NCBI GenBank assembly: GCA_027459725.1
Contig: DAIDHK010000003.1
Span: forward strand, 931-64,930
Direction of reading: 5' to 3'
Source: Candidatus Levyibacteriota bacterium
GTDB lineage: Bacteria > Patescibacteriota > Microgenomatia > Levybacterales > UBA12049
Length of the DNA: 64,000 nucleotides
Part shown: positions 161 through 24,563 of the stretch, piece after piece
Layout of the letters: every line of letters begins with the position of its first letter
How positions within the stretch are numbered: position 1 is the stretch's first letter
The notes under the pieces: model-generated
Database searches by the model: none
What the model saw: the letters and a program-made list of their open reading frames with translations, nothing else
What the model was told of the DNA's origin: nothing
Translations under genes and position numbers: made by a program

Positions 161-502
161 ATGCCTGCCAAAGTCAGTAACACCAAAAAAAATGATTACC
201 TTCAAACCTTGGAGTATATGTTACTCAAAAAAATAGTAACAGATGTCAAAGCCCAACAAATGAGTATGCCTGAGGCCAAGAAATATGCACAGGATTTTCT
301 AAAACTTCTGCCTTTCTCCTCTTCTGAAGATGCGCAAATTAAAATGCATGAGTATGTACGCAAGTATCCCGTTCATGCAGAGATGGAAGACTACATAAAA
401 GCGTTTAATCACGAGGCTAAAGTAAATTCGATCATTGACAAAATGCGCAAACACCTTAAGAATAATAATATAGATAAAGCTTTGGAGGAAGCGAAAAAAT
501 AA
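161..502 (+). CDS. small alpha-helical hypothetical protein
   Basis: ORF 131..502; ATG 161 preferred because TTGCAA-17bp-TACCAT ends 6 nt upstream; stop is 1 nt from the next ATG. Confidence 0.75.
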   Translation: MPAKVSNTKKNDYLQTLEYMLLKKIVTDVKAQQMSMPEAKKYAQDFLKLLPFSSSEDAQIKMHEYVRKYPVHAEMEDYIKAFNHEAKVNSIIDKMRKHLKNNNIDKALEEAKK

Positions 503-503
503 T

Positions 504-2351
504 ATGGCAAATATAGACGCCCCAATCACACCAATGGAAGCTGTTACTCCTGCCCGTGATCCAAAAAAAGATACTTTAGATTTAGGAGGAAGAAGAGTTG
601 ACACCCCAGCTGGTGCTCTGGATAAGGCCATGGGCGAACTACCCGATCCCATTTTTGACGCAGAATCTGCATTAAAACAAAATACCTCTGAAGCTCTTTC
701 CCAGAGCTTAGATGGATTAGCCCATGACTCAGATAGAGACTTGCGGGAAGAAATAGATGGCGGTCTAAGAACAAATATGATACGGCAGGACAATCTTCGA
801 CAAAGTAATCAAGCTGCTGCTGAGGTATTGCGACGACGCCATCAAGCCAGGATTGCAGGTACAGCTGCTGCAGGAACAGGCGAACCAGCTGCTGCAACTG
901 GGGCTTCAGCTAGTGATGAGTTGCCTAGTTTTGCCGACACTATGTTCCCTTCAGCGGTCGAACCAGCTACTACCGCAGGAATGGGTGAACCGTCCTCCTT
1001 TTCTAGTTCTTTTACTGCCCAAGAAGCTCAACGCCAAGCAGATCTTATAATGGCAGGTACATTACGTCCTGGAGATGTTAAAGCTGGACCTGCTATGACC
1101 GATGATATAAATAGGCTTCTGGCTGCCAGAGGCTATACTGGTGAACAAATTAAAGCAATTGATGACCATCTTCAGCGATCTGCTGCTGCGACTGGCCCTG
1201 CCACCCCTGGCGGAGGGAATACTGGAGCTGCCGCAGCGGGAACGGGAGAACCCTTAGCAGTAATCGAACCTGAAGCAAGAGGTGTTGATTCCCAAGCTGC
1301 TGTCCCTGAACGAGAAGATACTGGAGCTACAAAAGAATCAGATAAAACACCCGGTAGAGCGGAAGCTGACAAACGACAAAGAATGAATGAACTAGAAACC
1401 AAGTTCAAAGAAAATAAAGTTCCCATGACTGTAGCTGAGCTTAATGAGTTAAGGCAATTACGACAGGAAGGGATTGCATACTTCCCTACTCCACAAGAAG
1501 AATTACAAGATATAAAAAATAAACTTCTTGATCCTTCTTTAACGGATGCCGATCGAGAAAAATTAGGCGATCGTTATAATGATCTCCTTAGGCAAACCAG
1601 CCCTGAAACTGCTGAGACTCTCAGACAACAACTGGAAACCGAGGCCGAGAAAAAAGTGAATGAGTTGGGCAGAGGTTTGGTGGAATCATATTTAAAAGGC
1701 GATGTTAATATGGAAAGCTTGAGAGAGTTGCAATCACTTATAGGACAACAAGTGCTATCAGAAATAACCGGATTTACCCCCGATCAAGCTGCAGAGGCAT
1801 GGAATTTCTTCAAAAAATCTAAACTTGCCCAACATGTTGAATCAGCTTTAGAAACAGGTGTACGTAAACTTTTAAATGAAATGATGGGTATTGAAATGCA
1901 GGTACTTGTAGCTCCTGGTACACTTGATCAAATCAATGACGCTGAAAAAGAAACCTTGCAAACTATTGCAAAAATGGAACAAGATCTGCAATTAAAAAAT
2001 GTCGATTTGGATGATGAAAAGCGACGCAAACAAAGAGGAGAAATCAATAATCAATATATGAAATTAGCCTCTTTAAGAAGTCGTAAGATGGATTTGGCCA
2101 CCAGTTTGCCCAAATTAGAAGCACAATACTCCAACTTACAGCGACAAGTGAGATTTAAATTAGGACTGATGTCTCCCTGGGCTGCACTGGTAGCTTGGGG
2201 TGGTTCACAGACTAGAAAAATATCCGCCGAAATACAATCTAAAATTCAAAGTCAGTTACCTAGTCAGGCATATTTAGCCAACTATGATGCCTATACCAGT
2301 GCTAAATTTGCAAATGCTACGGAAGCTATTCCTCTCAAATCAGCCGCCTAA
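504..2351 (+). CDS. hypothetical protein with Ala/Gly/Thr/Pro-rich disordered N-half and coiled-coil C-half (candidate secreted substrate)
   Basis: 615-aa ORF; repeated AAAGTGEP motif; no signal peptide; ends KSAA. Confidence 0.8.
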   Translation: MANIDAPITPMEAVTPARDPKKDTLDLGGRRVDTPAGALDKAMGELPDPIFDAESALKQNTSEALSQSLDGLAHDSDRDLREEIDGGLRTNMIRQDNLRQSNQAAAEVLRRRHQARIAGTAAAGTGEPAAATGASASDELPSFADTMFPSAVEPATTAGMGEPSSFSSSFTAQEAQRQADLIMAGTLRPGDVKAGPAMTDDINRLLAARGYTGEQIKAIDDHLQRSAAATGPATPGGGNTGAAAAGTGEPLAVIEPEARGVDSQAAVPEREDTGATKESDKTPGRAEADKRQRMNELETKFKENKVPMTVAELNELRQLRQEGIAYFPTPQEELQDIKNKLLDPSLTDADREKLGDRYNDLLRQTSPETAETLRQQLETEAEKKVNELGRGLVESYLKGDVNMESLRELQSLIGQQVLSEITGFTPDQAAEAWNFFKKSKLAQHVESALETGVRKLLNEMMGIEMQVLVAPGTLDQINDAEKETLQTIAKMEQDLQLKNVDLDDEKRRKQRGEINNQYMKLASLRSRKMDLATSLPKLEAQYSNLQRQVRFKLGLMSPWAALVAWGGSQTRKISAEIQSKIQSQLPSQAYLANYDAYTSAKFANATEAIPLKSAA

Positions 2352-2377
2352 CTAATATAATTGAATCTCAAGTATTT

Positions 2378-2830
2378 TCATTTAGATCCACGGCGTAAAA
2401 AACCAAATAAAATTCGAATTAATCCCCTAGGTCTTTTTGTATCAAGCGACCTCTCATCGGTGGGAGGAATTAGTTTCTCACTAGTTGCAGATTTTACACT
2501 TTCTGATGCGTCCGAGGATAGAGTATGTAAATATTCTGTGATTGCAGCTTGTCTCTTCTCTTCTTGTTGTTGCGCCAATTTAGCATCTTGCATCTCTTGC
2601 AACAATCTTGGCTTGGTTAAATCTTCAATACCCTGATCCAACCTTTGCGAAAAAGTTATTTGTCCCTCTGTTTGAGAGGACTCAGCTTGTAGAGAGATGC
2701 CATGGTGACGCATTGGTCGTTGAGTATGTAAATGCAGTAATGTGCTCACAAAACGCTTCAATCGAGGCTCTGTATTTTTCTCAGTGCTATCTGTTGGGGC
2801 ATTTTCCAGTGATATTCCTTCTTCCATCAT
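2378..2830 (-). CDS. hypothetical protein with basic amphipathic C-terminus
   Basis: 150-aa ORF; TATAAT 5 nt upstream of the ATG; ends RGLIRILFGFLRRGSK. Confidence 0.65.
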   Translation of the reverse strand: MMEEGISLENAPTDSTEKNTEPRLKRFVSTLLHLHTQRPMRHHGISLQAESSQTEGQITFSQRLDQGIEDLTKPRLLQEMQDAKLAQQQEEKRQAAITEYLHTLSSDASESVKSATSEKLIPPTDERSLDTKRPRGLIRILFGFLRRGSK

Positions 2831-2900
2831 TAAAGATTATATGAGGAGTTAAATAAAAAAACAATTTGTGGAGTATAAAAGATACACCCATTTGTTGAAT

Positions 2901-3140
2901 CTAAACTAGTATATGTTTATTGATAAACGCTCTACCCGAGCCAGATTTGAGATAGTGTTCGAAACTAAAGGCAGTATATTTATTTGAGAAGGCAAAGTAA
3001 GAAATTAGCTTTACTGGTAATCTTTTTTTCGTTGCAACAACTTGACCTTTAGAATGGCGCTCTATTCTCTCTTTTAAATTTTCAGAGCAACCTGTATATT
3101 GCTTACCGTCATTGCGCTTGAGGATATAAACTTAATAAAA
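2901..3140 (-). pseudogene. small GIY-YIG nuclease pseudogene
   Basis: Manual translation FY*VYILKRNDGKQYTGCSENLKERIERHSKG...FEHYLKSGSGRAFINKHILV*; in-frame TAA at 3132-3134 and no ATG. Confidence 0.8.
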
Positions 3141-3331: not shown

Positions 3332-4318
3332 CTAATGCGCAGAGAAATACTTTTTATTAAGATTAAATGCGTAGTAGCCTGTACCTATGAGAGTAATACC
3401 ACAAATCATCAAGGATATCGGCCATCCTAATGTCCCACTGAAATATTCTCCTGTAATCTTGAGAATATAGATCATGAGAAAAAGAGTTCCAAATGTCAGA
3501 AAGGATTTACTCTTAAGATAAACACTTAAGAATAGTACGGCGAATAACAATCCTGGATAAATTACTTCCCATATTACATCTTGTGAAGGCTTCCAACCAC
3601 CTAACCCAAGTGCAGCTCCAAGAAAAAACAGCACTCCAAAACCATATAATGCTCCTTTCAAATCTTTTTGACTTGTAGAAGAAAAATAATATCCAAGACT
3701 AACATAGGATAATCCAACTAGAAGAAATCGATACTCATAAAATTTAATGTCCGCAAAATATGGATTTGTGCCGATTAGAAAATTAGTAAAGCTGAAGAAA
3801 AACCATGTAGCATATGCAATACTAAAAAATGTAAAAATAGGCTTCTTAAATACGAAATAGGAGCTTATGTACATCGCTAGTAATACTCCAGCAATAAGAC
3901 TCTGAATTCCTGCACTAGATGTATTGAAACCTACTTGGTCAAATACAACTCCTAATCCAAGCGGAATGACAAGTGCAGCGATAAGATGAAATGCATAGCT
4001 AACTGCACCATATTTTTCTTCTTTATGGAGAAGTACACCTATAAGATAAGCTGCAATACCAAACCCAAGTGTAGCAAGGATTTTTGTAAATATATTTAAC
4101 GAACTCCAGTTTTGCCATATCAGCACTGCTACTCCCACAAATACTATAAATCCGCCGATGAAATACAAAACCTCTGACAATCCTAAATCACGTGTTAGAG
4201 TGCTTATATCCTTCTTCCTTCCTGCTTCGAAAGCATGCACTACTTCTGCTTGGGTAATAAGATTCTGTGAGGAGAACGATGTTATAGCTGATAATACCGA
4301 CTCTTTATCCATATTCAT
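3332..4318 (-). CDS. polytopic membrane protein (DUF2157-like)
   Basis: 328 aa, about 10 TM segments; 'LYFIGGFIVFVGVAVLIWQNW' resembles the DUF2157 N-terminus. Confidence 0.65.
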   Translation of the reverse strand: MNMDKESVLSAITSFSSQNLITQAEVVHAFEAGRKKDISTLTRDLGLSEVLYFIGGFIVFVGVAVLIWQNWSSLNIFTKILATLGFGIAAYLIGVLLHKEEKYGAVSYAFHLIAALVIPLGLGVVFDQVGFNTSSAGIQSLIAGVLLAMYISSYFVFKKPIFTFFSIAYATWFFFSFTNFLIGTNPYFADIKFYEYRFLLVGLSYVSLGYYFSSTSQKDLKGALYGFGVLFFLGAALGLGGWKPSQDVIWEVIYPGLLFAVLFLSVYLKSKSFLTFGTLFLMIYILKITGEYFSGTLGWPISLMICGITLIGTGYYAFNLNKKYFSAH

Positions 4319-4319
4319 A

Positions 4320-4835
4320 CTATTGAATTATCCAACCTAGAAAATGAAATGAATCAGAATAGGTTGAACCATTGTTTACAATATTGAGCTTTTTACTTGT
4401 ATTATGTCCTACAAGATACTCAGCATTATAATTATTATCATACCAGAAGAATGGGAAAAAACCATCACCTTGATTTCCATTCTCAATCTTATACCCATCA
4501 GGAGATACATCAGCAGGGTCTAGTGTTAGGTTCTGCGCATTTTGTAGTGCAACAGGCATACTTTCATTAGTCGAAACGTTATGGATATATAGTTGCGGGG
4601 TAGTATACGATCTATAAGTGGGGTATGCAGGTGAAGGTTGAGGTACAACAATGAGTCGTCCATTATTAACAGAATAAGACTGATCGTTATAATAATTTTC
4701 ATCTGTTGTATATAAAAAGCTGTATTTGGGATGAAGGAAAAGACCTGGAATATAAATGCTCGCAACGACAAAAAGTATCACCAATATTGGTATTGCAAAT
4801 CCAATAACAAGGGGCGCATTTTTTTTCTTAAACAT
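4320..4835 (-). CDS. membrane-anchored hypothetical protein
   Basis: ATG 4835 gives MFKKKNAPLVIGFAIP, one N-terminal TM then a soluble domain; co-oriented with and abutting 3332..4318. Confidence 0.7.
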   Translation of the reverse strand: MFKKKNAPLVIGFAIPILVILFVVASIYIPGLFLHPKYSFLYTTDENYYNDQSYSVNNGRLIVVPQPSPAYPTYRSYTTPQLYIHNVSTNESMPVALQNAQNLTLDPADVSPDGYKIENGNQGDGFFPFFWYDNNYNAEYLVGHNTSKKLNIVNNGSTYSDSFHFLGWIIQ

Positions 4836-4923
4836 AACTATCTCAAGTATTTCAAAAATAAATGTGGAAATCAAGGTTCCAACCGTTCCAGTGGTAGATA
4901 AAAAACGAAGCTAAAAAATAGGG

Positions 4924-5010
4924 CGGAGAGGGCGAGATTCGAACTCGCGGTGGAGTTACCTCCACAACAGTTTTCAAGACTATCCTGTTAAACCGCTCCA
5001 GCACCTCTCC
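4924..5010 (-). tRNA. tRNA-Ser (anticodon TGA), CCA not encoded
   Basis: Reverse complement GGAGAGGTGCTGGAGCGGTTTAACAGGATAGTCTTGAAAACTGTTGTGGAGGTAACTCCACCGCGAGTTCGAATCTCGCCCTCTCCG; long variable arm, TTCGAAT T-loop, G discriminator. Confidence 0.95.
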
Positions 5011-5103
5011 TGGTAGCAAAAAGTATATCAAATACCCCTATACACTACAAGCTAAGGCTAAATATTAGTTGACCATGGTTTCCCATACAACAATTCTATA
5101 TTG

Positions 5104-5465
5104 ATGAGAGACACGCAACGAAAAGGAAATATCCCTGTATCACAAGCAATAGCTAGCTTTACACAAATGGGTTATGATATCGTTTTACTACTAACAGAAT
5201 CAGCATCTTATGATTTATTAGTAGACATTGGTCTTGAAATAAAACGTATACAAGTAAGGTATTGTAGTAGTAATAGTGTTGATCTAAGGAGAGTACATTC
5301 AAATTCTAAATGATACGTAGTCAAAAAAATAAAATAGAATGCTTATGACTGGCTCTATGTTCTTAAAAATGATGGCAAAGAATATTTGATTAAAATTGTT
5401 TGTCAAACCGAAGAGCAATAAGATCAAAGAAAGAACATTTACTAATCCATACAAATTATTCTTAG
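5104..5465 (+). pseudogene. PD-(D/E)XK nuclease pseudogene (group I intron-associated PDDEXK_5-like)
   Basis: MRDTQRKG...ESASYDLLVD...KRIQVRY; reading continues past TGA 5311 and TAG 5335 as NAYDWLYVLKNDGKEYLIK, then an apparent frameshift near 5395. Confidence 0.65.
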
Positions 5466-5578
5466 TTCTCTACTTGTAAAAAACTTTCGGTATGAACTAA
5501 TCCGCATTATAGTCTGGGCTCTGATTCTGGGATCTTGGCTTGACAGTAATACAAAAATACAGCAAACTAGAGTTATCT

Positions 5579-7693
5579 ATGTTTTCTCTTGCCCGTAAAT
5601 TGTTACTAACACTGTCAATAGCTCTTATTGTAATAATTTTTGCGATCAACCCGGCTTTTGCACAAACTACTACATCTACCACGCAAAGTGTAACGCCAAC
5701 AGTTGCAGATTATGCTGAAAATTTAAATGTTCAAAAACTGATGATTAACGTCATGAGTGCCATGAGTTGTCAGGTAGCAGGTATTAATGCAGCCTATCCC
5801 AATCAAGCTTGTTACGGCCAAAAGAGCAACCCCTTAAATGGTCAGGTTTCCCTGCAGAACACAAACAACCTCGGACTCATCGGCCTTGCAGTTCAGGGCA
5901 TCAACCTTACTTTTACTCCTATTGCCTCTCCCAATACCTATTTTCAGGATTTAGCTCAAAATTTCGGTTTTGTGAAACATACTTACGCATCTACCACCAC
6001 ACAATGTGCAAACGGCGGAGTATACGGGCAAGGAGTAGGATTTTGCCAGCTGCATCCACTGATGCAAATTTGGACTGTTGTCCGTAATCTTGCCTATTTA
6101 GGTTTTGTAGTAGTATTCATCTTTATTGGATTCGCCATAATGTTTAGAATAAAAATGAATCCTAATACCGTTGTAAGTATTCAAAGTACAATTCCCAAAG
6201 TCATAATTGCCTTGATTCTAATAACTTTTTCCTATGCCATTTCAGGATTTTTAATTGATATCATGTATGTTTCAATTGGAGTCATCACCCAGCTCGGAGA
6301 ACAAGTAGATCCTATTTCAATTAATAGTAATCATCAAAAGAACCCTGACATGGACAAAATTTTTTCTACTTTACAAGGAGATAATCCAATCAGCTTTGCC
6401 AGTCAAATGGTGGGATTAGGAGGAACAGCCAGTAACACTGCTCACGCTTTAGGAGATGCTGCTGGAGGAATTATAGGATCGTTCGGAGAAGGCGGTACAA
6501 TAATTGCCGCTTTGATTGGCGGCCTGGCGGGATCCAAAGTAGCCTCGGCACTTGGTTCGGGTCTGCAAATTGGAGGAGCAATAGTTGGAACAGCCATTGC
6601 AGCTATCACCGGAAATCCCGAACTCATACCAGCACTTTCTATGGGCGGAGCGAATATAGGTGGAGCTTTGGGACAAGTTATCGGTATCTCAGCTGGTGTT
6701 GGCAGCGCTATAAATAACGCCAGCGGCACTGTTGCCTGGATCGGCTATGTTGCAGCTGTGCTTATTTTATTTGTCGGAATACTAATTTCACTAGCACGGC
6801 TTTGGCTAACTTTGATTATGGCATATATAACTATTTTAGTAGATGTTGTCTTCGCACCGTTTTGGATTTTACTAGCAATTGTACCAAAATCTAAATTCAC
6901 TTTTACTTCCTGGATCAAGGATATGATTGCTAATCTGGCTGTTTTTCCGATGGTTATCGGCATTTTTGTCATAGCAAAGATATTCATCGATGCATTTAGT
7001 ACAGGCGTTGGGAATGGTGAGTTATTTGCTCCACCTCTTGTAGGCTTAGGCTCATTAAATGATGGGGCTAATACCATGCAAGGGATTATTGGCCTTGGTT
7101 TTATATTTATGGCACCTTCCCTGCTTAATATCTCACGCTCAATTTTTGGAGCGCCTAAATCAACTTTAATGTCTAATAGTATACAAAGCTTTATGATAGG
7201 AGCACAATCAGGCAGAAGAATTTGGGGAGTAACTGGCGGTAGGTTAATCGGTGTTGATAAAAACGGAAAGCCTAAACCATTCAGTGCAATGCTTGCGAAT
7301 AATCGCGCTGAAAGGGCCCATCACAAAACTGATGAACTACTTACTCTTCAAAGAGATCTTGATGCAGGCAAACTTACAGGCTTTGATGCAGTACGAGCTA
7401 AAGCCAAACTTCGACTCGCCAATGCGGGAAGAGGTTTCTCTAATCTGGGTCAAAATAGTACAGTAGAATTTAGGGAGAAACTTCGTAGTCGCTTAGACGA
7501 ACTACAAAGATCGGGTAGGTTTGATGGCCCTCAAATGGAAAAGTATATGAAAGACTATGCTGCCCGAGAAGTGGCCAGGTCAACAGGGCGAGCAAAATTA
7601 GCTACTAGTGAAAATCAGGTACTCGAGAAAGTTTTACAGGAATACAATCTAGGTGTTAAGCAACCAAATCCCACTCCCGGTGGCTCGCATTAG
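5579..7693 (+). CDS. VirB6/TrbL-like polytopic membrane protein of the T4SS-like locus
   Basis: Signal peptide (..NPAFA), WTVVRNLAY..FIGFAIMFR..IPKVIIALILITFSYAI and 'ILVDVVFAPFWIL..W.K..IANLAVFP' TM blocks, Gly-rich insert, charged C-tail. Confidence 0.65.
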   Translation: MFSLARKLLLTLSIALIVIIFAINPAFAQTTTSTTQSVTPTVADYAENLNVQKLMINVMSAMSCQVAGINAAYPNQACYGQKSNPLNGQVSLQNTNNLGLIGLAVQGINLTFTPIASPNTYFQDLAQNFGFVKHTYASTTTQCANGGVYGQGVGFCQLHPLMQIWTVVRNLAYLGFVVVFIFIGFAIMFRIKMNPNTVVSIQSTIPKVIIALILITFSYAISGFLIDIMYVSIGVITQLGEQVDPISINSNHQKNPDMDKIFSTLQGDNPISFASQMVGLGGTASNTAHALGDAAGGIIGSFGEGGTIIAALIGGLAGSKVASALGSGLQIGGAIVGTAIAAITGNPELIPALSMGGANIGGALGQVIGISAGVGSAINNASGTVAWIGYVAAVLILFVGILISLARLWLTLIMAYITILVDVVFAPFWILLAIVPKSKFTFTSWIKDMIANLAVFPMVIGIFVIAKIFIDAFSTGVGNGELFAPPLVGLGSLNDGANTMQGIIGLGFIFMAPSLLNISRSIFGAPKSTLMSNSIQSFMIGAQSGRRIWGVTGGRLIGVDKNGKPKPFSAMLANNRAERAHHKTDELLTLQRDLDAGKLTGFDAVRAKAKLRLANAGRGFSNLGQNSTVEFREKLRSRLDELQRSGRFDGPQMEKYMKDYAAREVARSTGRAKLATSENQVLEKVLQEYNLGVKQPNPTPGGSH

Positions 7694-12158: not shown

Positions 12159-12217
12159 CAGTATGATTATGGTTCGACCTCTTGCAAAGCCTAAAGATTT
12201 TGGGATACCATGAGAGT

Positions 12218-14872: not shown

Positions 14873-14874
14873 CT

Positions 14875-15240
14875 ATGTTAAAAGAACATTTATTAGCCTT
14901 ATCTATTCCTGGGGAGAATGGGAGTAGCACTAATATCGTAATGCCTAACGCAGTAAACTGCGGCAGTAATGGCTGTTTGAACACAGTCATGCAATACATC
15001 ATACAATGGCTTTTCGTAGGAGCCATCATTCTTTGTCTAGCTTACCTAATCTGGGGCGGGATTGATTGGACAATGTCCTATGGAGACAAAACGAAAGTGC
15101 AAAAAGCCCGTTTAAAACTTGTGTATGCCATTATTGGTTTATTTATAGTTTTCCTCGCTTTCTTCTTTGTTAATTTGGGAGGACACTTACTTGGTCTACC
15201 TCTTACTAATGTCAGTACAACTATCAATACAACTCCTTAA
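14875..15240 (+). CDS. VirB2/TrbC-like T4SS pilin
   Basis: LIWGGIDWTMSYGDKTKVQKARLKLVYAIIGL two-TM pilin signature. Confidence 0.85.
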   Translation: MLKEHLLALSIPGENGSSTNIVMPNAVNCGSNGCLNTVMQYIIQWLFVGAIILCLAYLIWGGIDWTMSYGDKTKVQKARLKLVYAIIGLFIVFLAFFFVNLGGHLLGLPLTNVSTTINTTP

Positions 15241-15262
15241 CTTTCAACTATAATAGAACAGC

Positions 15263-16495: not shown

Positions 16496-16499
16496 AACT

Positions 16500-18041
16500 A
16501 TGAACAAATCTATTAAGCAATGTTTATCATTTATAAAAAAGCATATCTATCTCATCTTGTTAATTAGCTTTTTCTCACTTTATACTCTGGAGGGCATTTA
16601 TTTGCTCGATCCAGATTTCGGTTGGCACTTACGTTTTGGTGAAATAGTATTACAAACCCACAGTGTCCCCTTAAAAGATCTATTTTCATATACCATGCCA
16701 AGCTATGACTTCATTAATCATGAATGGTTTTCAGACGTTATTATCGCCGTTATTTACCATTTAACCGGACTTGTAGGAGTAGCTATATTTTTTGGACTAT
16801 TCGTCACTATTGGACTTGGAGTAGTAGTTAACATTGCCCAAAAGAAAGATAAGATTGGTTTCTGGCTGTCACTTTTAACTATGGTCGCTGTAACAATGGT
16901 GCAATTTGCCGGCATTCGCCCACAAGCTTTAAGCTGGACATTCTTTGTTTTAGTCTGGTATTTGTTGGATATCTCAAAAAATAAATGGCGCTTTATAATC
17001 TTGCCTATCATTTTCCTCATCTGGGCTAATCTGCACGCCGCCTTTGCTTTAGGGTTATTTCTATTTTTTGTTGCTGTCATCAATTCTTTGCTTAAAAAAG
17101 ATAGAAGCAGTATTTATCTGTTAATCTCCTTCATCATATCGACCGGGGCTACCTTGATTAACCCTTATGGATTTAAATTATGGCAAGAAGTCATTCTCAC
17201 CTCAGCTTCCCCGCAAATCTCCACTGTTGAAGAATGGACGCCAAGTTTCACCCACATTATCTTTCCCATGTGGCTATTTATTGATTTCTCATTAATTCTC
17301 CTCTGGTTCAACAGATCTAACGTAGCTAAGAAAAATATTTTTTTACTAACTGTTATTGGCATACTTTTTTTAGTAGGCATACGACAGGCTCCGCTATTTA
17401 TGTTGTTTTTATTACCTTTAGCAATTGAGGCAGTGAATGATTTCATTGACCAGGCAAAAAAATATCAGTATGCCATTAAACGCCTAAAAGTTGCATCACT
17501 AATAGTAACTATCATCACTGTTGTTTTCTGTATTATTACCTTATGGCCTCTGGAATCCAGCTTATGGAAAAGCGGATTTAACATCCAAAAAAGTATTTCA
17601 TTAACTTACCCAAGCACTTCTGTCAAATATTTAAAAACTCACCCATTTAAAGGCAATTATTATTCAATATATAACTGGGGTGGTTATTTGATCTGGCAAC
17701 TCCCTAACAAAAAAGACTTCATAGATGGTCGTATGCCTACCTGGATTAATCCCAATGCACCCAAAAATGAAAGCAAAAATGCATTGCAGGATTTTCTCAA
17801 GATAGACAATCCAAAAATACTGGACAAAACAATTCATAAGTATCATATAACCACCCTAATAATCGCACCATTGAAACAATCTGTTCCTCAATGCTGGTGG
17901 CTGCAAAACTGGTGTAATCAAGTCATCAAGCAAAGAAATAAGCAAAATCAGCCACTTGAAACTTATCTCCATATTCATCACTGGCATGAGCTAATACACG
18001 ACAAAGTCTCAGTTGTTTATCAGTTATCTGTTAGTCAGTAA
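16500..18041 (+). CDS. GT-C-like integral membrane glycosyltransferase
   Basis: DPDFGWHLRFG, NHEW, RPQ, WANLH, NPYG, EEW, YNWGGYL and FIDGR motifs. Confidence 0.65.
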   Translation: MNKSIKQCLSFIKKHIYLILLISFFSLYTLEGIYLLDPDFGWHLRFGEIVLQTHSVPLKDLFSYTMPSYDFINHEWFSDVIIAVIYHLTGLVGVAIFFGLFVTIGLGVVVNIAQKKDKIGFWLSLLTMVAVTMVQFAGIRPQALSWTFFVLVWYLLDISKNKWRFIILPIIFLIWANLHAAFALGLFLFFVAVINSLLKKDRSSIYLLISFIISTGATLINPYGFKLWQEVILTSASPQISTVEEWTPSFTHIIFPMWLFIDFSLILLWFNRSNVAKKNIFLLTVIGILFLVGIRQAPLFMLFLLPLAIEAVNDFIDQAKKYQYAIKRLKVASLIVTIITVVFCIITLWPLESSLWKSGFNIQKSISLTYPSTSVKYLKTHPFKGNYYSIYNWGGYLIWQLPNKKDFIDGRMPTWINPNAPKNESKNALQDFLKIDNPKILDKTIHKYHITTLIIAPLKQSVPQCWWLQNWCNQVIKQRNKQNQPLETYLHIHHWHELIHDKVSVVYQLSVSQ

Positions 18042-18097
18042 GTTATACATTGACCTCTTGACAAGTCTGTGTAATTTTAACTAGAGTATAAATAGAT

Positions 18098-18532
18098 ATG
18101 AAATTTGACTTGAAAAAATCATCGCTTTTTGCCTCTACTTTCGTGACACTAGGTGCGCTTACTACTGTTTCTTCATTTGCTGCAGGTACTGATAATGCTA
18201 TCAGCATTTGTCCTGCCGGTTCAGCTTTCTCAGGAGTCTGTAACTTTAACACTAGTACACTCTTAGGTAGTGTTATCAATGTCGTCTTCGTTATCGCTAT
18301 CTTAATCGCCCTCTTCTTCCTGATCTATGGCGGTATCCGTTGGATTATCTCCCAGGGTAATAAGGAAAAGGTTAATGGTGCTCGTGATATGTTAATCGCT
18401 GCTTTAGTAGGTTTGATTGTTGTCTTCCTCTCCTACTTCCTACTCGGTCTGGTCATACAGTTGTTATTTGGTCAGTCAACACAAAATCTGTTAAATTCAG
18501 TTACTACTAACGGTATCTTTAATACGAAATAA
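18098..18532 (+). CDS. VirB2/TrbC-like pilin, copy A
   Basis: Leader ending SFA, Cys pair, LIYGGIRWIISQGNKEKVNGARDMLIAALVGL. Confidence 0.85.
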   Translation: MKFDLKKSSLFASTFVTLGALTTVSSFAAGTDNAISICPAGSAFSGVCNFNTSTLLGSVINVVFVIAILIALFFLIYGGIRWIISQGNKEKVNGARDMLIAALVGLIVVFLSYFLLGLVIQLLFGQSTQNLLNSVTTNGIFNTK

Positions 18533-19007
18533 ATAGTTCTTAATGCTCTCCTCCTTTTAGTCTCATTTCCTAATTTCTGTTTTTAGAGTCAACCATTGAC
18601 AAATCATATTGGCTGCGTTTAAAGTATTAATATACCATGAAAATAAGTATTAAAAGATTTGCCACCGGTTTAATCAGCATTAGTAGTTTAGTTGCCTTTT
18701 CAGCTACTCCAGCATTTGCAGGCGGTAATGTTGTTAGTATTTGTCCTGCCGGTTCAGCTTTCTCAGGAGTCTGTAACTTTAACACTAGTACACTCTTAGG
18801 TAGTGTTATCAATGTCGTCTTCGTTATCGCTATCTTAATCGCCCTCTTCTTCCTGATCTATGGCGGTATCCGTTGGATTATCTCCCAGGGTAATAAGGAG
18901 AAGGTTAATGGTGCTCGTGATATGTTAATCGCTGCTTTAGTAGGTTTGATTGTTGTCTTCCTCTCCTACTTCCTACTCGGTCTGGTCATACAGTTGTTGT
19001 TTGGTCA
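18206..19007 (+). repeat. 269-bp direct repeat shared by the two tandem pilin genes (18206-18474 and 18739-19007)
   Basis: Manual alignment at offset 533: only two mismatches (18367/18900 and 18466/18999), both synonymous. Confidence 0.9.
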
Positions 19008-19206
19008 AACTACTCAGAACTTACTTAACTCTGTTACAAGTAATGGAATATTTAATAGCGGAGTTACTAATTCTCAGTCTCTTCCTTCTTGTTCATCCTA
19101 TTGTCCTAACACAAGTACATGTCTGGCAAATAATGTAAATGCTAGTGCTTATCAAGGGTGTATAACAAACTGCGAAACTAACCACGGTGGAGGTCAATGT
19201 AATTAA
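18637..19206 (+). CDS. VirB2/TrbC-like pilin, copy B, with Cys-rich C-terminal extension
   Basis: Same pilin core as copy A; tail CSSYCPNTSTC..CITNC..C. Confidence 0.85.
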   Translation: MKISIKRFATGLISISSLVAFSATPAFAGGNVVSICPAGSAFSGVCNFNTSTLLGSVINVVFVIAILIALFFLIYGGIRWIISQGNKEKVNGARDMLIAALVGLIVVFLSYFLLGLVIQLLFGQTTQNLLNSVTSNGIFNSGVTNSQSLPSCSSYCPNTSTCLANNVNASAYQGCITNCETNHGGGQCN

Positions 19207-19253
19207 TTGACTAGTTTATTGTTTCTAACAAATACTTCTGCTAGATTATCTAT

Positions 19254-19610
19254 ATGGACTGGAATAATTGTCTGCAGAATGTAACAGATTCTTCAAATAA
19301 AGTGGTTGGCCAAGCTGCCACATTAAACTGTGTACCCGTACTCTTCTCTAACTTAGTCAATGCTGCGTTTGTCTTTGCTGGTAGTGTTGCAGTCATCTTT
19401 ATTATTTGGTCAGGAATTCAATATATAATGTCAGGTGGGGACCCTAAAAAGGCCGAGGGCGCGAAGAAAACATTAACCTGGTCTATCATAGGACTTTTAC
19501 TCATTGTCTTCTCTGTGGCGATTATAAACATCCTAGCAACCATTACAGGCGCTCATTGCATCACTATGTTTGGATTTAACAACTGTCAGACCAATATCGC
19601 AGGCAATTAG
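19254..19610 (+). CDS. VirB2/TrbC-like pilin
   Basis: IIWSGIQYIMSGGDPKKAEGAKKTLTWSIIGL. Confidence 0.85.
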   Translation: MDWNNCLQNVTDSSNKVVGQAATLNCVPVLFSNLVNAAFVFAGSVAVIFIIWSGIQYIMSGGDPKKAEGAKKTLTWSIIGLLLIVFSVAIINILATITGAHCITMFGFNNCQTNIAGN

Positions 19611-19629: not shown

Positions 19630-19995
19630 TTAATTCTGCGCATTTCCTTCGCTCTTAATTATTTTATTCAATTCTTCTTTTGTTACTGACAAGTCTGAAT
19701 CATCTTTTATGCTCATTAAATATTGATCAAAAGACTGCTGTGTCTGCTTAAGAACATCTGGATAAAGATCTCCTTCCATTTTACGCTTCCCATCTTTAAT
19801 TTCTTCCATAGCAATTTGTAAGTTAGTCTGTACCTGCATTTCAAATAAAGAGTCGTAAGTTGTCCAGAGAATCTGATCCACAACATAATGCTCTGATTCA
19901 TCCATCGTGTCATATTTGGTCGCTAGTTCCTCCTGAAAGCTTTTTTCAAAAGGTAAAAGTTTGATTAAATCTTTCGTTTTATGTGCTTTGTCCAT
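19630..19995 (-). CDS. small acidic helical hypothetical protein
   Basis: 121-aa ORF starting 5 nt after the stop of 20001..23222. Confidence 0.75.
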   Translation of the reverse strand: MDKAHKTKDLIKLLPFEKSFQEELATKYDTMDESEHYVVDQILWTTYDSLFEMQVQTNLQIAMEEIKDGKRKMEGDLYPDVLKQTQQSFDQYLMSIKDDSDLSVTKEELNKIIKSEGNAQN

Positions 19996-20000
19996 AGTTT

Positions 20001-23000
20001 TTATGCCGCACGTGAATTATCCAACGCTTGGGCACCAATATAATTAATCGCTCGGATAAAAAATCTTCGCATATGATGTGGGTCTACTGACCCACTTCTA
20101 GTCGCTGTATTCAAGGCCGTAAGGACTTGTGCTATATCACCTTGCACAGCAGGTGCTAAATTCAACTGGGCCGTTTCATTTAACATTTCCGCCATTCTTT
20201 CTGGTGGTAATACATGCGTCAACCATACCACATCATTGGAACTACTCAGTACTCTTAGCATATCAAAATATCCCCTTGGTAAAGTTCTTAAATGACCATC
20301 TCTCAACATCTCAGCGTATACAGGATTATTGTTAGGTAAAGTCGAGGTGTCAAATACATAGTCCGCATCAGGCTTCCCACCAGCGGCATCACGAATATAG
20401 CGTAAAATTAGATCTGCCTTTCCATCACTGAGAATTATCGGCAATTCATCACACAAATGACCTGCATGCGTCAGATGATCCGTTATCTCTCTCATATCGT
20501 CAGTAGAATTCTTGCGCTCTCTCAGTCTGGTCACTATATTTTCTCTTTCGCTGGCTTCCCTATTAATGATCCCCAGACGTACATTATAAATATTGTTTCT
20601 ATAATCAGTAATTACTGCTTGAATTAAATTGATATTATTAGTTCTTGCTGTAGGAGTGGGTGCCCCCGTAAATGGATCCAAACTTGCATCCCACCCTGTA
20701 ACTGGCGCCACAACATTTACACTTACATAAATATCATCATATATTTCATCAGCAGTATGAGTTATAAAATCATTATCCCAAACTTGAAAATCTCGAAGCT
20801 GTATTCTATTTTGCAAGATACCGGCTCTAGGAGCGGCAGATCGATCCGGTTCGATATTCAAAGCTCTTTCTTCTATACGAGCATGCTCAAGGTTACGACG
20901 AATATCTGCATTTGGTGACCACCCCATCTCTGTTACAGCAATATGATTTAGATTAGGTGGAAGAGGCACGGTAGTATTGTTCCAGCCAAAGGTGCCAAAA
21001 CGAGTGCGAATAGTGTGTATAAAGTTGAGCCTTGCTGTTATTTGCTGAGGATCTAATGAGCGAATATCGATATTTGCTCTCCAATAAGTGGGGACTGCTG
21101 GAGGAGGAACATTTGGTACGGTATTAAAGTCTGTTGTCCATTGATTATTTGGCCCGCTTATTACATTAACTAATTCAGCTGGTAATGTTCCACCTGATAT
21201 TAAGGTTCTTAAATGTGCGATAAATGCATTAGCATATAACATTTGCACCTCCAGATTATCTCTTTCACTTTCCAAACTACTAAGTACCCTACGCTCCGCA
21301 GACACAATATCTGCTCCATTACTTAAAGCATCCAGCTTGCTATTAATTTTATTTCGTAATTCTACTAATCTATCATATCGAGTCTGATCCTCCTCTTTAT
21401 CTCTCCTTACTTCTGCCATACCTGCTTCATAGATAGCATTAACCTCTTCATTTATTGTCTGTCTAGCACTTTCAGCTGCCTTGCCTGAAACTGTAACCAA
21501 ACCGAATCTTCTATTTCTCTCCCTTTCTCTAGTCACTCTTAAGTCAGCAACTCTACCTGCAAAAGATGTAGGTCCAGTATCAACGTTGAGTACTCTGTGC
21601 AATCTATTTATCTCTGCATTTAGGTCTATTAAAGAGTTATACCCAAACTCTTGTGTGACCGCTTCTCGTGCCGCATTGAGCTCGCCTACTGCATCAGAAT
21701 ATGCCTTCAGCGCATCTCGATCCCCTTTCATGACATTTGCCTCCTCCTCTATAGCTTTGGCTTGTCTCTCAATTTGTTCATCTCTCTCTTGTTTCAGCTT
21801 GCCCCCTTCGATCGCTTCTAAGCGAGCTTTTATGGCTTTCGGACCCACCTCAGCTAATTTGGCTCTTTGCTCCGCCACCAAACTCTTGGTGGCAAAAAAT
21901 AGCATGGTTTCTTGCTTGGCCTTGGCCATCCGCTTCAAGCTTTCCACCATATCAATATGGTTCCTATCAAAATTGTTATTAGGTACCCACTTTCCACCTA
22001 CCTCGTGCATAGGTGATACATATTTAAATGCACCACGAGGAGGAGGGTTACTGTGGCGGGATACGATACCTGCCCTATTAGGATTCCAGCGTCGGGTAAA
22101 TTCTTGTTGCCAATGTGTCCCAAGCTGTTCAGTAGAACCATCTAGATAGGCATAAATGGCTTGTTCAGGACTGGCATCTAATTTTTCGGTGGGTACACCC
22201 AAAGCCTCATAAAATTCTCTACGGATCTCAATACCATTCAAAACACTATCTTGCAAATCTTGCACATCAACCGTGCTCTCGGGGACGAATTGATTTTTAT
22301 TTCTGTTTTGGCGCAGTCTAGTAATCATTCCACCGGCCATATTATAATCATTGACATCTATACCAAAAGCCGCCTTTACATAAGCTGCTTCCGCTGGATC
22401 CACCTGGACATATCGGAAAGCATCTCGACAAAACTTCAGCTGATCGACATCACCATTGCGGATTGCCCAGGCAATGGGCTCGTAAATTCCTCTCACCGCA
22501 TCAATACCTACCCCAGCTACCCCTATGGCAGCGGCTCCAAAAGCCACAGCAGGCACACCTCCGGCAGCATACAATCCCACACCACCTCCAGCCACACCAA
22601 CCAACCCAGCTACTTTGGCGATCTTCTCATTGACGGGATTTGGCAACCAGCGGAAAAATTTATTTAAAAAACCTTGTCGCCTACCGGTCACAGCCAAAAT
22701 CTCATTGGCTATTCTTCTTCGTTCACCTGCTGGCAAATGGACTGCCACTTGTCCCAATGCAAAAGCTCTATACTTGGTTCTTTCTTCTCTCAGAGCCGTA
22801 ACGGCCATTAAATGATCAGGGTCCTTCAGATATTCCTTGATTTTTTTCTCATCTATGACTTGATTGCCGGCATTGTCGGTGGTGACAATAGCCTCGAGCA
22901 TTGCATTTTCACCGGGGTGATTTTGGGCTGAAACAACTGCCAATTGCGGATTGCTCTCACGCAACTTGAGCATACCTGTGGCGAAAGATCTCAATAATCT

Positions 23001-23222
23001 AAAATATTCTTTTCTAACTTTTTCTGGAATATGGACCTCTTCTGAAACTTCTTTTTCTGTGGATTTGTGTGTTCTTGCATCTCTAGTACGACTGGAGTCA
23101 TCATCAATGAAAAATTCAGACCTATTGATCAACAAGCCGCCCTCTTCTTGCTTATGCTCACCTATCTTTTGTTTTTTCTTGCCACCTTCAAGGGCAGCAT
23201 CTAAACTTACTTCCGATGACAT
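20001..23222 (-). CDS. large coiled-coil protein with Gly-rich hydrophobic segment (candidate secreted substrate)
   Basis: 1073 aa; VAGLVGVAGGGVGLYAAGGVPAVAFGAAAIGVAGVGI segment, long heptad region, ends SRAA. Confidence 0.85.
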   Translation of the reverse strand: MSSEVSLDAALEGGKKKQKIGEHKQEEGGLLINRSEFFIDDDSSRTRDARTHKSTEKEVSEEVHIPEKVRKEYFRLLRSFATGMLKLRESNPQLAVVSAQNHPGENAMLEAIVTTDNAGNQVIDEKKIKEYLKDPDHLMAVTALREERTKYRAFALGQVAVHLPAGERRRIANEILAVTGRRQGFLNKFFRWLPNPVNEKIAKVAGLVGVAGGGVGLYAAGGVPAVAFGAAAIGVAGVGIDAVRGIYEPIAWAIRNGDVDQLKFCRDAFRYVQVDPAEAAYVKAAFGIDVNDYNMAGGMITRLRQNRNKNQFVPESTVDVQDLQDSVLNGIEIRREFYEALGVPTEKLDASPEQAIYAYLDGSTEQLGTHWQQEFTRRWNPNRAGIVSRHSNPPPRGAFKYVSPMHEVGGKWVPNNNFDRNHIDMVESLKRMAKAKQETMLFFATKSLVAEQRAKLAEVGPKAIKARLEAIEGGKLKQERDEQIERQAKAIEEEANVMKGDRDALKAYSDAVGELNAAREAVTQEFGYNSLIDLNAEINRLHRVLNVDTGPTSFAGRVADLRVTRERERNRRFGLVTVSGKAAESARQTINEEVNAIYEAGMAEVRRDKEEDQTRYDRLVELRNKINSKLDALSNGADIVSAERRVLSSLESERDNLEVQMLYANAFIAHLRTLISGGTLPAELVNVISGPNNQWTTDFNTVPNVPPPAVPTYWRANIDIRSLDPQQITARLNFIHTIRTRFGTFGWNNTTVPLPPNLNHIAVTEMGWSPNADIRRNLEHARIEERALNIEPDRSAAPRAGILQNRIQLRDFQVWDNDFITHTADEIYDDIYVSVNVVAPVTGWDASLDPFTGAPTPTARTNNINLIQAVITDYRNNIYNVRLGIINREASERENIVTRLRERKNSTDDMREITDHLTHAGHLCDELPIILSDGKADLILRYIRDAAGGKPDADYVFDTSTLPNNNPVYAEMLRDGHLRTLPRGYFDMLRVLSSSNDVVWLTHVLPPERMAEMLNETAQLNLAPAVQGDIAQVLTALNTATRSGSVDPHHMRRFFIRAINYIGAQALDNSRAA

Positions 23223-23230
23223 ATATAAAA

Positions 23231-23266
23231 ATGGTAATTGATTTGAAGTATTTATTCAAGTATGCT
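23231..23266. promoter_or_regulatory. overlapping divergent sigma70-type promoters
   Basis: Plus strand: TTGATT(23238)-17bp-TATGCT-7nt-ATG 23274. Minus strand: TTGAAT(23259)-17bp-TACCAT-8nt-ATG 23222. Confidence 0.6.
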
Positions 23267-23273
23267 CAGATAT

Positions 23274-24563
23274 ATGGCGGATACAGAAGTAACAGCTGAA
23301 GTCGCGGATGCTACTGGGGCAGCACCTGTCGCTCCTACTGCAGAGGAAGCAGTGACAACTGAACCTAAACAAAAAGAACAGGCTGAAGAGGTGGTCTCTA
23401 AAGAAGTTTCTTTGAGCCAACAAAAAAATGAAGCGCGCCTAGTCACTAATCTGGTAATTTCGCGAGCTATCGATAGAGCGAAGGAGAAGCAACGTAAATT
23501 AAATTCTCCCATAGACGGTGAAGAAAGCCCCGCACCCCTCACAGAAGCAGATCAATCTTTCCTGTCTATAAATGCTCTGAAAACAGCGGGAATTTCGGTA
23601 GATGAAAATGGAGAAGAAGTAATAACCGAGCTTAACTACACTACAGCTGAAAATCCTTACGGTAGAAAAATCGATAGTAGTAAAAGACCTATAAATGTCG
23701 TAACTGACGAAGGGACATTCATTATTCGTAGTATAAAAAGAATTAATGGGCAAGATTTCACCTGCATGTGCTCTGATGCTAAACGGCCCACTCAGCAAGA
23801 GGAAAAAATATTTAAGCGAAACACAATTGTAGAAGGCCAGATCAGAGCAGAAGCAGAAATAATAATCCCAGCTATTACAGATAAGGAAGGCGATGTCTTA
23901 GCATTATCTATGGGCATGTTGGAGGCTGATGCAGATGAAAGGAATGATATTATAGAGTCCGCTGCCAAGTCGGTTGGACTAATAACCTCAGAATCAATGA
24001 TTTCTACAATAGAAAGATTCAAAAAAGAAAATCCAAATTTACCCCCCGAAACAAGTACCGATTTAGATGGACTTGTAAACACACTTAAAAAAAGCAATGT
24101 GGTGGACAAGGAGGCTATGGTTCGCATAGCTAATATCTTTTTAACAGATAAGGTTAAGAAATTATTAATAAACCAACAAGCAAGATTGTCTGAAGGCAAT
24201 AATCAAGCAGCCAGTAACATTGGGGAACAAATAAGTATGTGGAATAGCCTTACAAGTGGAGAAAATAACTTAATTGAAAGATACTTTAACAAAGTTGAGA
24301 AAGGTGAGGTCTCAGAAGAAGGATTAAGATCTATTAACAGATTATTAGTCAATGGTGATGTATCCAATTTCCTAGAAGAACTTCAGACAAGAATAAAAAA
24401 TGATCCCAGCCTGACACCAGAGGAGAGAGAGGAAAAAACAAAAATGCTAAACTATTATAATGAAACACCTGGAGAGGGGTTGGTATCTCTTTTTGGAGCC
24501 ATAGCTCTAGAAGTCCTTTTAGAAGTTGGAAAGAGCGTAGTAGCGGGACAAAAGGCAGCATAA
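23274..24563 (+). CDS. acidic hypothetical protein with C-terminal hydrophobic helix (candidate secreted substrate)
   Basis: ORF 23262..24563, ATG 23274 preferred; ends GLVSLFGAIALEVLLEVGKSVVAGQKAA. Confidence 0.8.
   Translation: MADTEVTAEVADATGAAPVAPTAEEAVTTEPKQKEQAEEVVSKEVSLSQQKNEARLVTNLVISRAIDRAKEKQRKLNSPIDGEESPAPLTEADQSFLSINALKTAGISVDENGEEVITELNYTTAENPYGRKIDSSKRPINVVTDEGTFIIRSIKRINGQDFTCMCSDAKRPTQQEEKIFKRNTIVEGQIRAEAEIIIPAITDKEGDVLALSMGMLEADADERNDIIESAAKSVGLITSESMISTIERFKKENPNLPPETSTDLDGLVNTLKKSNVVDKEAMVRIANIFLTDKVKKLLINQQARLSEGNNQAASNIGEQISMWNSLTSGENNLIERYFNKVEKGEVSEEGLRSINRLLVNGDVSNFLEELQTRIKNDPSLTPEEREEKTKMLNYYNETPGEGLVSLFGAIALEVLLEVGKSVVAGQKAA

Follow-up and report, generated by a model that had tools for sequence, protein, structure and literature searches.

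Which proteins does the T4SS of an epibiotic member of the Patescibacteria deliver to other cells? The T4SS of Southlakia epibionticum is essential according to the available text of PMC10633639, and a cultivated Microgenomatia strain is described, in the accessible part of its report, as a parasite of a Chloroflexota bacterium that acts via tubes, possibly T4SS pili (10.64898/2026.06.21.733656). As far as the available text of two accounts extends, no substrates have been identified for Patescibacteria T4SS (PMC12102498; PMC10633639), and the "secreted array" of TM7x (PMC7427843) has been reinterpreted as pilins (PMC12102498).

We analysed a stretch of 64,000 nucleotides (the window) from Candidatus Levyibacteriota bacterium, contig DAIDHK010000003.1, in which an original prediction had singled out five ORFs as substrates delivered to a host, with a terminal Ala-Ala (-AA) acting as export signal or degron. 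The reading presented here, which we hold tentatively and judge to be nearly evenly balanced, is that these ORFs encode fast-evolving, chaperoned T4SS cargo with an optional -AA degron whose most likely reader would be host ClpXP.

A T4SS locus beside dnaA

Within the window, a Levybacteria-type Patescibacteria T4SS locus lies next to dnaA (Table 1), a position described for Microgenomatia in the available text of PMC12102498. The genes virB4 and prgI/virB3, a virB6-like gene and a VirB2 pilin array were found with Pfam (the virB6 match below cut-off), and VirB4 matches occur in 105/121 genomes of the family. A candidate coupling protein, a VirD4-like gene product of 794 aa with Pfam TrwB_AAD_bind and T4SS-DNA_transf above cut-off, is encoded on contig C1, unlinked to virB4; the gene 7 bp upstream of it encodes a 208-aa protein ending EKAA. 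Together with a CHAP-domain gene in the locus and the dnaN/dnaA neighbours, these features match the MPF-FATA-related Patescibacteria T4SS as set out in the accessible portion of Quinonero-Coronel 2025 (PMC12102498). The large cytoplasmic families, small partners and -AA bias described below set the locus apart from published accounts of this T4SS, which do not mention them in the text available (PMC12102498; PMC10633639).

All five predicted ORFs are present, lying among the virB6-like gene, five VirB2-type pilin-domain genes, prgI and virB4.

Table 1. Coordinates of features in the window (aa, amino acids).
Feature	Coordinates	Strand	Remarks
123-aa helical S123 protein	131..502	+	1 bp upstream of 615-aa gene; putative chaperone/partner
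615-aa acidic protein	504..2351	+	Ends KSAA; candidate cargo; sequence orphan
Ala-Ala codons, 615-aa gene	2343..2348	+	GCC GCC
150-aa ORF	2378..2830	-	Net charge 0; basic amphipathic end RGSK; weakest candidate; no homolog in fetched loci
VirB6-like membrane protein	5540..7693	+	Pfam TrbL E 0.0012, below cut-off; in 40/47 genomes
977-aa F977 member	7762..10695	-	Ends DMGL; large globular fold and separate C-terminal helical hairpin
P-loop-type protein with C-terminal OmpR winged helix	10779..12122	-	Pfam Trans_reg_C; 35/47 genomes; conserved F977 neighbour
VirB2-type pilin array	12182..19610	+	Five T4SS_pilin-domain ORFs (Pfam, above cut-off) with two membrane-protein genes in between
121-aa helical S121 protein	19630..19995	-	5 bp downstream of 1073-aa gene; predicted binding partner
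1073-aa F1073	20001..23222	-	Ends SRAA; N-terminal domain, Gly-rich hydrophobic segment about 190-255 (low confidence), long antiparallel coiled coil, C-terminal helical domain
Ala-Ala codons, 1073-aa gene	20004..20009	-	GCG GCA
429-aa F433	23274..24563	+	Ends QKAA; divergent from F1073, 51-bp spacer; C-terminal hydrophobic helix kept in family
Ala-Ala codons, 429-aa gene	24555..24560	+	GCA GCA
prgI (VirB3-like fusion), conserved 216-aa gene, virB4	24670..29091	+	Pfam PrgI and P-loop_TraG
dnaN	35339..36445		Near T4SS locus
dnaA	36688..38109		Near T4SS locus

The candidate proteins and their partners

The original prediction described the five as soluble, acidic orphans, several of them with their own promoter-like motifs, a description that fits them in part. 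Orphan status applies to the 615-aa protein, whose search returned itself alone, and to the 150-aa ORF, whereas the 977-, 1073- and 429-aa proteins can be placed in families; moreover, word-indexed homolog searches missed known family members, so that for the 615-aa protein orphan status is weak evidence. Solubility is called into question by a hydrophobic C-terminal helix in the 429-aa protein (17-mer 1.99) and by the Gly-rich hydrophobic segment near residue 225 of the 1073-aa protein (19-mer 1.90). The 977-aa protein is only weakly acidic (net charge -7), and the 150-aa ORF is not acidic at all. The promoter-like motifs occurred at chance frequency (41 vs 34.6 +/- 5.5 and 15 vs 15.5 +/- 4.2). 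None of the five N-termini contained a hydrophobic stretch (best 12-mer at most 0.80 on the Kyte-Doolittle scale, a measure of hydropathy and not a signal-peptide predictor). No Pfam family scored above cut-off for the candidates or for alignments A1, A4 and A5, the ESM Atlas gave no usable match, and no match to a known housekeeping or structural family, which had been named as contrary evidence, was found by family or by fold.

F977, an order-wide family with 627 relatives (clusters at 50% identity), is near-universal in the family and carries conserved polar motifs; its profile matched in 6/151 class genomes, a count to be read with the known members that the same profile missed. Although its model is confident (residues 166-977; pLDDT 90.3, pTM 0.89), searching with it as one piece turned up no matching fold in PDB Foldseek, in BFVD or in VIA wide, where the best score was Z 4.5 (41 aligned). 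The F1073 model (pLDDT 69.7, pTM 0.43), considered as a possible pore-forming toxin or translocator of colicin, IpaB or ClyA type, returned only generic hairpins as a whole chain (best Z 9.9, rmsd 2.7, 96 aligned), and PDB sequence-profile searches with F977, F1073 and S121 gave only weak coiled-coil or chance matches.

Two small helical proteins accompany the large ones, and this pairing of S121 with F1073 and of S123 with cargo-like genes is, with the predicted complex, new here. S121 follows the F1073 gene in 22/23 genomes, and in the 23rd the contig stops inside the gene. The predicted S121-F1073 complex, folded with orthologs from same-genus genome G092 that share 24% and 31% identity with their window counterparts, scored 0.65 vs 0.00 for the best of 3 controls; the mark set for this score is reached by 116/157 solved complexes and 2/215 mismatched pairs. 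Runs shared at least 70% of contacts, with a partner pLDDT of at least 72. The most confident contacts fall at F1073 residues 908-919 of 934 (about 1041-1056 of the window protein), and the last 15 residues lie outside the confident interface; S121 is thus predicted to bind F1073 beside its last helix. S123, which matches no Pfam family, occurs in 59/121 genomes. Of the 22 copies in the fetched loci, 19 have a cargo-like gene in the same orientation no more than 120 bp away, nearly always with S123 as the immediate upstream neighbour; the slot behind it holds the 615-aa gene here and unrelated cargo-like genes in relatives.

Given binding, an S121-type protein is probably a chaperone. A small helical partner predicted near the C-terminus of a large substrate recalls Helicobacter CagA-CagF and Legionella IcmS/IcmW-dependent effectors; according to the available text of PMC12857230, the site on CagA that CagF binds is close to the C-terminal signal. 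Unlike those systems, the pair here shows no sequence or profile match to them, would address a bacterial and not a eukaryotic target, has its partner one-to-one beside the client, and has a client whose export is putative.

Cargo or machine part

Judged by identity to same-genus genome G005, the candidate families have diverged much more rapidly than any recognised gene of the machine, even the pilins: VirB4 is 99% identical, the 216-aa gene 96%, the pilins 77-81% and the regulator 70%, vs 49% for F977, 30% for F433, 29% (local) for F1073 and 25% for S121. A hydrophobic 17-mer lies within the last 45 residues in 70/146 family candidates vs 2/146 for an internal 45-mer and 10/143 acidic controls, so that about half of the family's candidates have a hydrophobic last helix; hydrophobic segments are reported for many T4SS substrates in the accessible text of PMC12981334. 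In 38/40 loci of other families, the locus likewise holds large acidic genes, without detectable homology. Fixed locus position across a family, extreme divergence, dedicated small partners (one pair of which is predicted to form a complex) and the hydrophobic last helix lend cargo support beyond that of the original prediction, and we consider it reasonably probable that the candidate families are protein cargo of the T4SS. Fixed in the Levybacteria-type locus, they would be cargo of that machine, with the adjacent small helical proteins as dedicated chaperones (S121 clamping F1073 beside its last helix and leaving the last 15 residues free, as predicted) and with export through the T4SS via the C-terminal helix and tail; members with hydrophobic segments may insert into a membrane.

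The families could instead be structural or accessory components, peculiar to this lineage, of the T4SS or attachment apparatus, kept by the parasite and anchored by C-terminal or central hydrophobic helices, with the small proteins as assembly partners. F977 fits such a role with its presence in 34/47 genomes, its constant position next to virB6 and the regulator gene, its well-defined fold and its nearly invariant polar residues, F433 looks tail-anchored, and several recognisable subunits are absent from Patescibacteria T4SS, to judge from the available text of PMC12102498. Against this stand the divergence given above, the confinement of F1073, F433 and S121 to 23/121 genomes, with unrelated genes in the same slot elsewhere, and the orientation of several candidate genes against the machine genes; the -AA excess would also be left unexplained. 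We therefore regard machine parts as unlikely.

Terminal Ala-Ala and its possible reader

The claim that only candidates end in -AA holds in the window, where exactly 3/49 ORFs of at least 100 aa do so, and fails genome-wide, where short proteins of 65, 98 and 108 aa, which we take to be housekeeping-like or toxin-antitoxin-like, do so too. Six acidic AA-ending proteins are encoded in the genome, two of them (C5 and C6) without a T4SS neighbour. As a DNA-level motif, AA is ruled out by its differing codons.

Enrichment of -AA had been expected; it was not seen across the whole genome (8 observed vs 5.2 expected), while the chance of 3/5 AA ends at the genome rate of 8/1299 is 2e-6 (binomial, post hoc). 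In 124 other genomes, 12/208 candidates vs 11/2017 other proteins end in -AA, about tenfold over background (p=1.8e-7; this and the p-values below overstate significance, as the genomes are related), the candidate class being a crude filter that takes in unrelated proteins. A first class (acidic, with disordered N-terminus; 5/21 ending AA) had been defined post hoc; the class used here instead follows a rule that ignores the last 40 residues. Held-out data gave 4/107 candidates vs 6/1082 others (p=0.0085); singly, the held-out sets, that for the class comprising 40 loci, were not significant (2/45 vs 2/386, p=0.056; 2/62 vs 4/696, p=0.08).

A terminal Ala-Ala is a critical motif for ClpXP, and the E. 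coli degron consensus is [LFYW]-[LAR]-L-A-A, AA alone being often insufficient in that screen (available text of 10.1101/2024.01.29.576913). Like ssrA-type degrons, these candidates terminate in a free Ala-Ala, which Leu or Lys often precedes, and 4/12 AA-ending candidates in relatives end LAA. Unlike such degrons, they come from a cell without detected ClpX or ClpP, which leaves another cell or another protease as reader, and the window ends (LKSAA, NSRAA and GQKAA) agree poorly with the E. coli consensus. ClpX was found in 0/121 family and 0/151 class genomes, and ClpP was not found in genome G000 (98.67% complete). The degron option thus keeps its terminal dipeptide and is sharpened by the failure to find ClpX or ClpP in the parasite; Chloroflexota presumably carry ClpX. 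A host-read degron is in our view possible, somewhat short of probable; host ClpXP would then set the lifetime of an AA-ending minority, about 6% across relatives and 3/5 here.

The cargo might instead meet a reader at home, with the parasite's own Lon (or FtsH or S41 protease) recognising -AA and destroying unchaperoned, unexported copies. The parasite does have Lon and an S41 protease, and tmRNA tags of the parasite lineage end in AA (5/20) or in FA, VA or YA (12/20; FA commonest, 8/20), so the parasite's own proteases would read similar ends, another protease being needed for these tags without ClpX; the predicted chaperone, moreover, sits next to the tail. This alternative is rather improbable, since the commonest tag ends are not favoured among candidates ([VFYLW]A in 3/208 vs AA in 12/208), the tag of this genome ends AVA, and the free last residues of F1073 lie outside the confident S121 contacts.

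Further alternatives

The predicted complex fits an immunity protein as well as a chaperone, and large and small genes could form polymorphic toxin-immunity pairs, swapped as cassettes and aimed at the host or at competing epibionts. Their bicistronic layout, co-diverging partners and predicted tight binding agree with this, as does the colicin-like architecture of F1073 (coiled coil and hydrophobic segment). Yet S123 pairs with many unrelated large proteins, which better suits a class chaperone, the invariant residues of S121 are kept across partners about 20% identical, and no toxin domain was detected by Pfam, PDB profile or fold searches, so that we think such pairs quite improbable. Accounts of the interbacterial T4SS toxin-immunity pairs of Xanthomonas and Stenotrophomonas, as far as they were available, share with the locus bicistronic large and small genes, a bacterial target and a conserved C-terminal element; the locus differs in that no known toxin domain was detected and in that its T4SS is of monoderm type. 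XVIPCD, the export domain of those systems, was absent among the Pfam matches.

Might -AA be neutral, produced by chance in Ala-rich terminal helices, with no ClpXP to remove it? The genome-wide count, the individually non-significant held-out sets and an Ala content of about 10% in the last 20 residues of F977 would agree. In candidates, however, AA peaks at the very end (12, vs 2.3 on average over internal offsets 1-20 and 0, 0 and 1 at offsets 1-3; other proteins, 11 vs 8.15), Ala precedes a final Ala in 12/26 candidates vs 11/90 other proteins, and three unrelated families bear -AA in one locus while same-genus orthologs lack it; we give neutrality little credence. Candidate ends are equally enriched in KK (9 vs 1.15), and lysine is the last residue of 50/150 F977 proteins.

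The least credible option, on which we would place hardly any weight, is that -AA is an export signal common to substrates: T4SS effectors usually have C-terminal signals (available text of PMC12981334) and 3/5 candidates here end AA, but ortholog termini do not conserve it (G005 F1073 ends ADPL and F433 HIAD, while F977 ends YLAA; AA in 6/150 F977 vs 1.4, 2/22 aligned F1073 and 0/12 non-window F433 members), and it is therefore not the export signal, the universal form being rejected.

On a tree of 138 F977 tips, the 6 AA tips need 5 changes, with mixed codons; by these comparisons -AA has been gained repeatedly and independently, and is enriched yet optional.

Implications

Epibiotic growth depends on the T4SS in Patescibacteria, and the cargo of this T4SS has long been sought; for chaperoned cargo with an optional degron, this locus gives a short testable list, comprising three protein families without a recognised fold, a pair of small partner families, a single predicted complex and the one-dipeptide question of AA vs DD. 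With a Microgenomatia strain in co-culture, the cargo question is within experimental reach. It is conceivable, if unlikely, that a ClpXP-less parasite injects chaperoned proteins and repeatedly evolves AA for host ClpX to grip, either as a timer for self-destruction, sparing the host, or as an import motor borrowed from it. If true, terminal AA together with a small partner gene would be a usable marker of the Microgenomatia effector repertoire, and the parasite would be leaving it to a host protease to decide how long its proteins last.

Setting of the locus

The window lies on contig C3 of the source genome (G000; 1.5 Mb, 98.67% complete), where Pfam searches placed a VirB6-like gene, five VirB2-type pilin-domain genes, prgI, virB4 and a CHAP gene immediately before dnaN and dnaA; the same gene order near dnaN/dnaA has been reported for Microgenomatia in the accessible part of PMC12102498. 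Translation confirmed the five ORFs of the original prediction and, on three of them, the ends KSAA, SRAA and QKAA; the promoter-like motifs attributed to them were, in motif scans, no more numerous than chance. Several other features of the locus were recorded (see table). The 1145-aa protein has a long, low-complexity N-terminal part and matched zero families above the Pfam cut-off. Between the 615-aa module and virB6, the gene series is broken by a tRNA-Ser followed by membrane-protein genes; the 615/123 module is missing from the corresponding place in the same-genus genome G005. The small membrane protein at the locus edge is present in 36/47 genomes (cluster 5) and has a conserved FPL ending. 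The two extra VirB4-like paralogs show 41-42% identity.

Coordinates of features in the window (x..y) and elsewhere
Feature	Coordinates	Remark
S123 gene, 123 aa	131..502	family in 59/121 genomes
615-aa ORF	504..2351	
150-aa ORF	2378..2830	
Membrane-protein genes	3332..4874	
Break with tRNA-Ser	4922..5010 and 5101..5313	
F977 gene, 977 aa	7762..10695	
S121 gene, 121 aa	19630..19995	directly 3' of F1073 in 22/23 genomes
F1073 gene, 1073 aa	20001..23222	
F433 gene, 429 aa	23274..24563	
1145-aa protein	29131..32568	immediately 3' of virB4
Small membrane protein	G000:C3:230-976	just left of window
208-aa protein (L202)	G000:C1:250600-251226	ends EKAA
Protein with zinc-ribbon-like tail	G000:C1:251278-252462	beside virD4 pair
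tmRNA	G000:C1:275238-275645	
Acidic protein (L203)	G000:C5:27604-28146	ends EQKAA
Acidic protein (L204)	G000:C6:34942-36411	ends RVYAA
VirB4-like paralogs	G000:C15:11856-13535, C8:47733-49436	
Two S121 genes in tandem, following an F1073 gene	L009:12892-13689 (G051)	

Large protein families

DNA upstream of virB4 was fetched from 46 genomes of the taxonomic family (discovery set) and from two held-out sets, namely 38 further family genomes and 40 genomes from other families of the class, picked by length of assembled piece. The original description of the large proteins as orphans appears to hold for the 615-aa and 150-aa proteins, for which searches turned up zero relatives, and fails for the other three, which belong to families (F977, F1073 and F433). 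F977 forms a single cluster in 34/47 genomes, adjoining a winged-helix regulator, and a profile search yielded 627 clusters at 50% identity; one relative carries the NCBI annotation "hypothetical protein" (Candidatus Levyibacteriota bacterium). Structure prediction gave its core a confident fold (pLDDT 90.3, pTM 0.89) with zero fold matches in PDB or BFVD. F1073 was found in 23/121 genomes, usually with the F433 gene divergent from it, and was modeled as a long coiled-coil hairpin plus terminal domains (pLDDT 69.7, pTM 0.43). The predicted solubility needs qualifying for two of these proteins, since the last helix of the 429-aa protein is hydrophobic and the 1073-aa protein contains a Gly-rich stretch that is hydrophobic too. 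Identity to G005 was 56-99% for the recognized T4SS genes, 49% for F977, 30% for F433, 29% for F1073 and 25% for S121. Very large acidic proteins of a further family (up to 2528 aa) fill the F1073 slot in L033, L011, L044 and L061, and several of them are preceded by a small helical gene from a third such family (cluster 32).

Small partner genes

Two partner genes, S121 and S123, were overlooked in the original prediction. In the fetched loci, 19/22 S123 copies adjoin a co-oriented large acidic gene; these large genes mostly encode a hydrophobic segment close to the end and are often mutually unrelated. Complex prediction with F1073 and S121 orthologs from G092 (residues 52-934 of the former) scored 0.65 vs 0.00 for the best control, with at least 70% contact agreement between runs and a partner pLDDT of at least 72; in calibration, the mark for this score was met by 116/157 solved complexes and 2/215 mismatched pairs. 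The best predicted S121 contacts fall at the start of the final F1073 helix (approximately residues 1041-1056 in the window protein) and leave the tail free. This placement resembles that of CagF, which binds CagA close to that protein's C-terminal signal according to the accessible part of PMC12857230. The predicted binding would fit a chaperone and an immunity protein alike.

Distribution of the Ala-Ala end

Among the 49 window ORFs of at least 100 aa, only the KSAA, SRAA and QKAA proteins end in AA; across G000, using a custom longest-first caller, 8/1299 such ORFs do, vs 5.2 expected. Six of these eight are acidic: the three in the window, the 208-aa protein beside a VirD4-like gene, and two whose neighbors include no T4SS gene. 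In G005, F977 ends in AA and F1073 and F433 do not; overall, AA ends occur in 6/150 F977, 2/22 F1073 and 0/12 F433 members. The proposal that -AA is an export signal was therefore rejected, as the end is not conserved among orthologs.

Candidates were defined as proteins of at least 300 aa in which Asp+Glu make up 12.5% or more of the residues, with no more than one hydrophobic segment and no homolog among other G000 proteins, the last 40 residues being ignored. AA ends were found in 8/101 candidates vs 5/935 others in the discovery set, and in 2/45 vs 2/386 (p=0.056) and 2/62 vs 4/696 (p=0.08) in the held-out sets (pooled p=0.0085). AA ends are enriched among T4SS-locus candidates (12/208 vs 11/2017 over all sets, for genomes that are kin and hence non-independent and a candidate class that contains false members), although they are not conserved. 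In an F977 tree of 138 of the profile hits and loci, excluding proteins above 1300 aa, five changes account for the six AA tips. A hydrophobic or amphipathic last helix, often terminating in Lys, is the commoner shared end (70/146 family candidates, only 8/62 in other families). The -AA end is a minority tag that was gained repeatedly.

A spacing of 7 bp separates the 208-aa EKAA gene from the VirD4-like coupling-protein gene that follows it; one relative has a weak homolog with a different ending, and apparently similar gene pairs occur in G070 and G120, 26-36 kb from virB4. The L203 and L204 proteins, distant from T4SS genes and lacking a Pfam family, are possible stand-alone cargo candidates. 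Cys-rich zinc-ribbon-like C-terminal tails were also seen in L177, L185, L187, L191, L194, L198 and L199; in other families of the class, such proteins sit within the virB4 locus.

Possible readers of the Ala-Ala end

ClpX was found in 0/121 family and 0/151 class genomes (class tallies include unpublished genome G176, on which alone no conclusion rests), and a search of G000 found no ClpP. Hosts of the Chloroflexota type would be expected to have ClpX. The one cultivated Microgenomatia strain found in our literature search parasitizes a Chloroflexota bacterium, with tubes that may be T4SS pili, according to the accessible part of 10.64898/2026.06.21.733656. For E. coli ClpXP, the accessible part of 10.1101/2024.01.29.576913 describes terminal Ala-Ala as critical and insufficient alone; the residues before AA in the window proteins match its consensus poorly.

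One rival explanation is that the parasite, which encodes Lon and an S41 protease, reads -AA in self-proteolysis. Family tmRNA tags (n=20) end in FA (8), AA (5), VA (2) and YA (2), so parasite proteases would read related ends; candidates, by comparison, favor AA over [VFYLW]A (12 vs 3), which leans to ClpX and hence to the host. Drift is the other rival. Against it, AA peaks at the last position in candidates (12 vs 2.3 internally; 11 vs 8.15 in other proteins); a caveat to the AA excess is that KK is enriched at candidate ends as much as AA. A putative host-read degron is, tentatively, the most likely role of -AA. In this lineage with no detected ClpX, tmRNA encodes long, variable tags of 11-32 aa (L093-L122), and it is close to the T4SS locus in many relatives.

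Implications

The accessible parts of earlier reports indicate that the Southlakia T4SS is essential and may export proteins (PMC10633639), that T4SS effectors carry varied signals at the C-terminus (PMC12981334), and that an "effector" array proposed in TM7x (PMC7427843, PMC12592800) has since been reread as pilins (PMC12102498); Patescibacteria T4SS substrates go unnamed in the accessible part of a 2025 review (PMC12857230). Our literature search, with subscription journals largely outside its coverage, found no paper that covers F977/F1073/F433-type families or their partners, and none that reports an -AA bias. The T4SS-locus families are a real, undescribed set of hypervariable proteins with dedicated small partners, and they are, on balance, probably chaperoned cargo.
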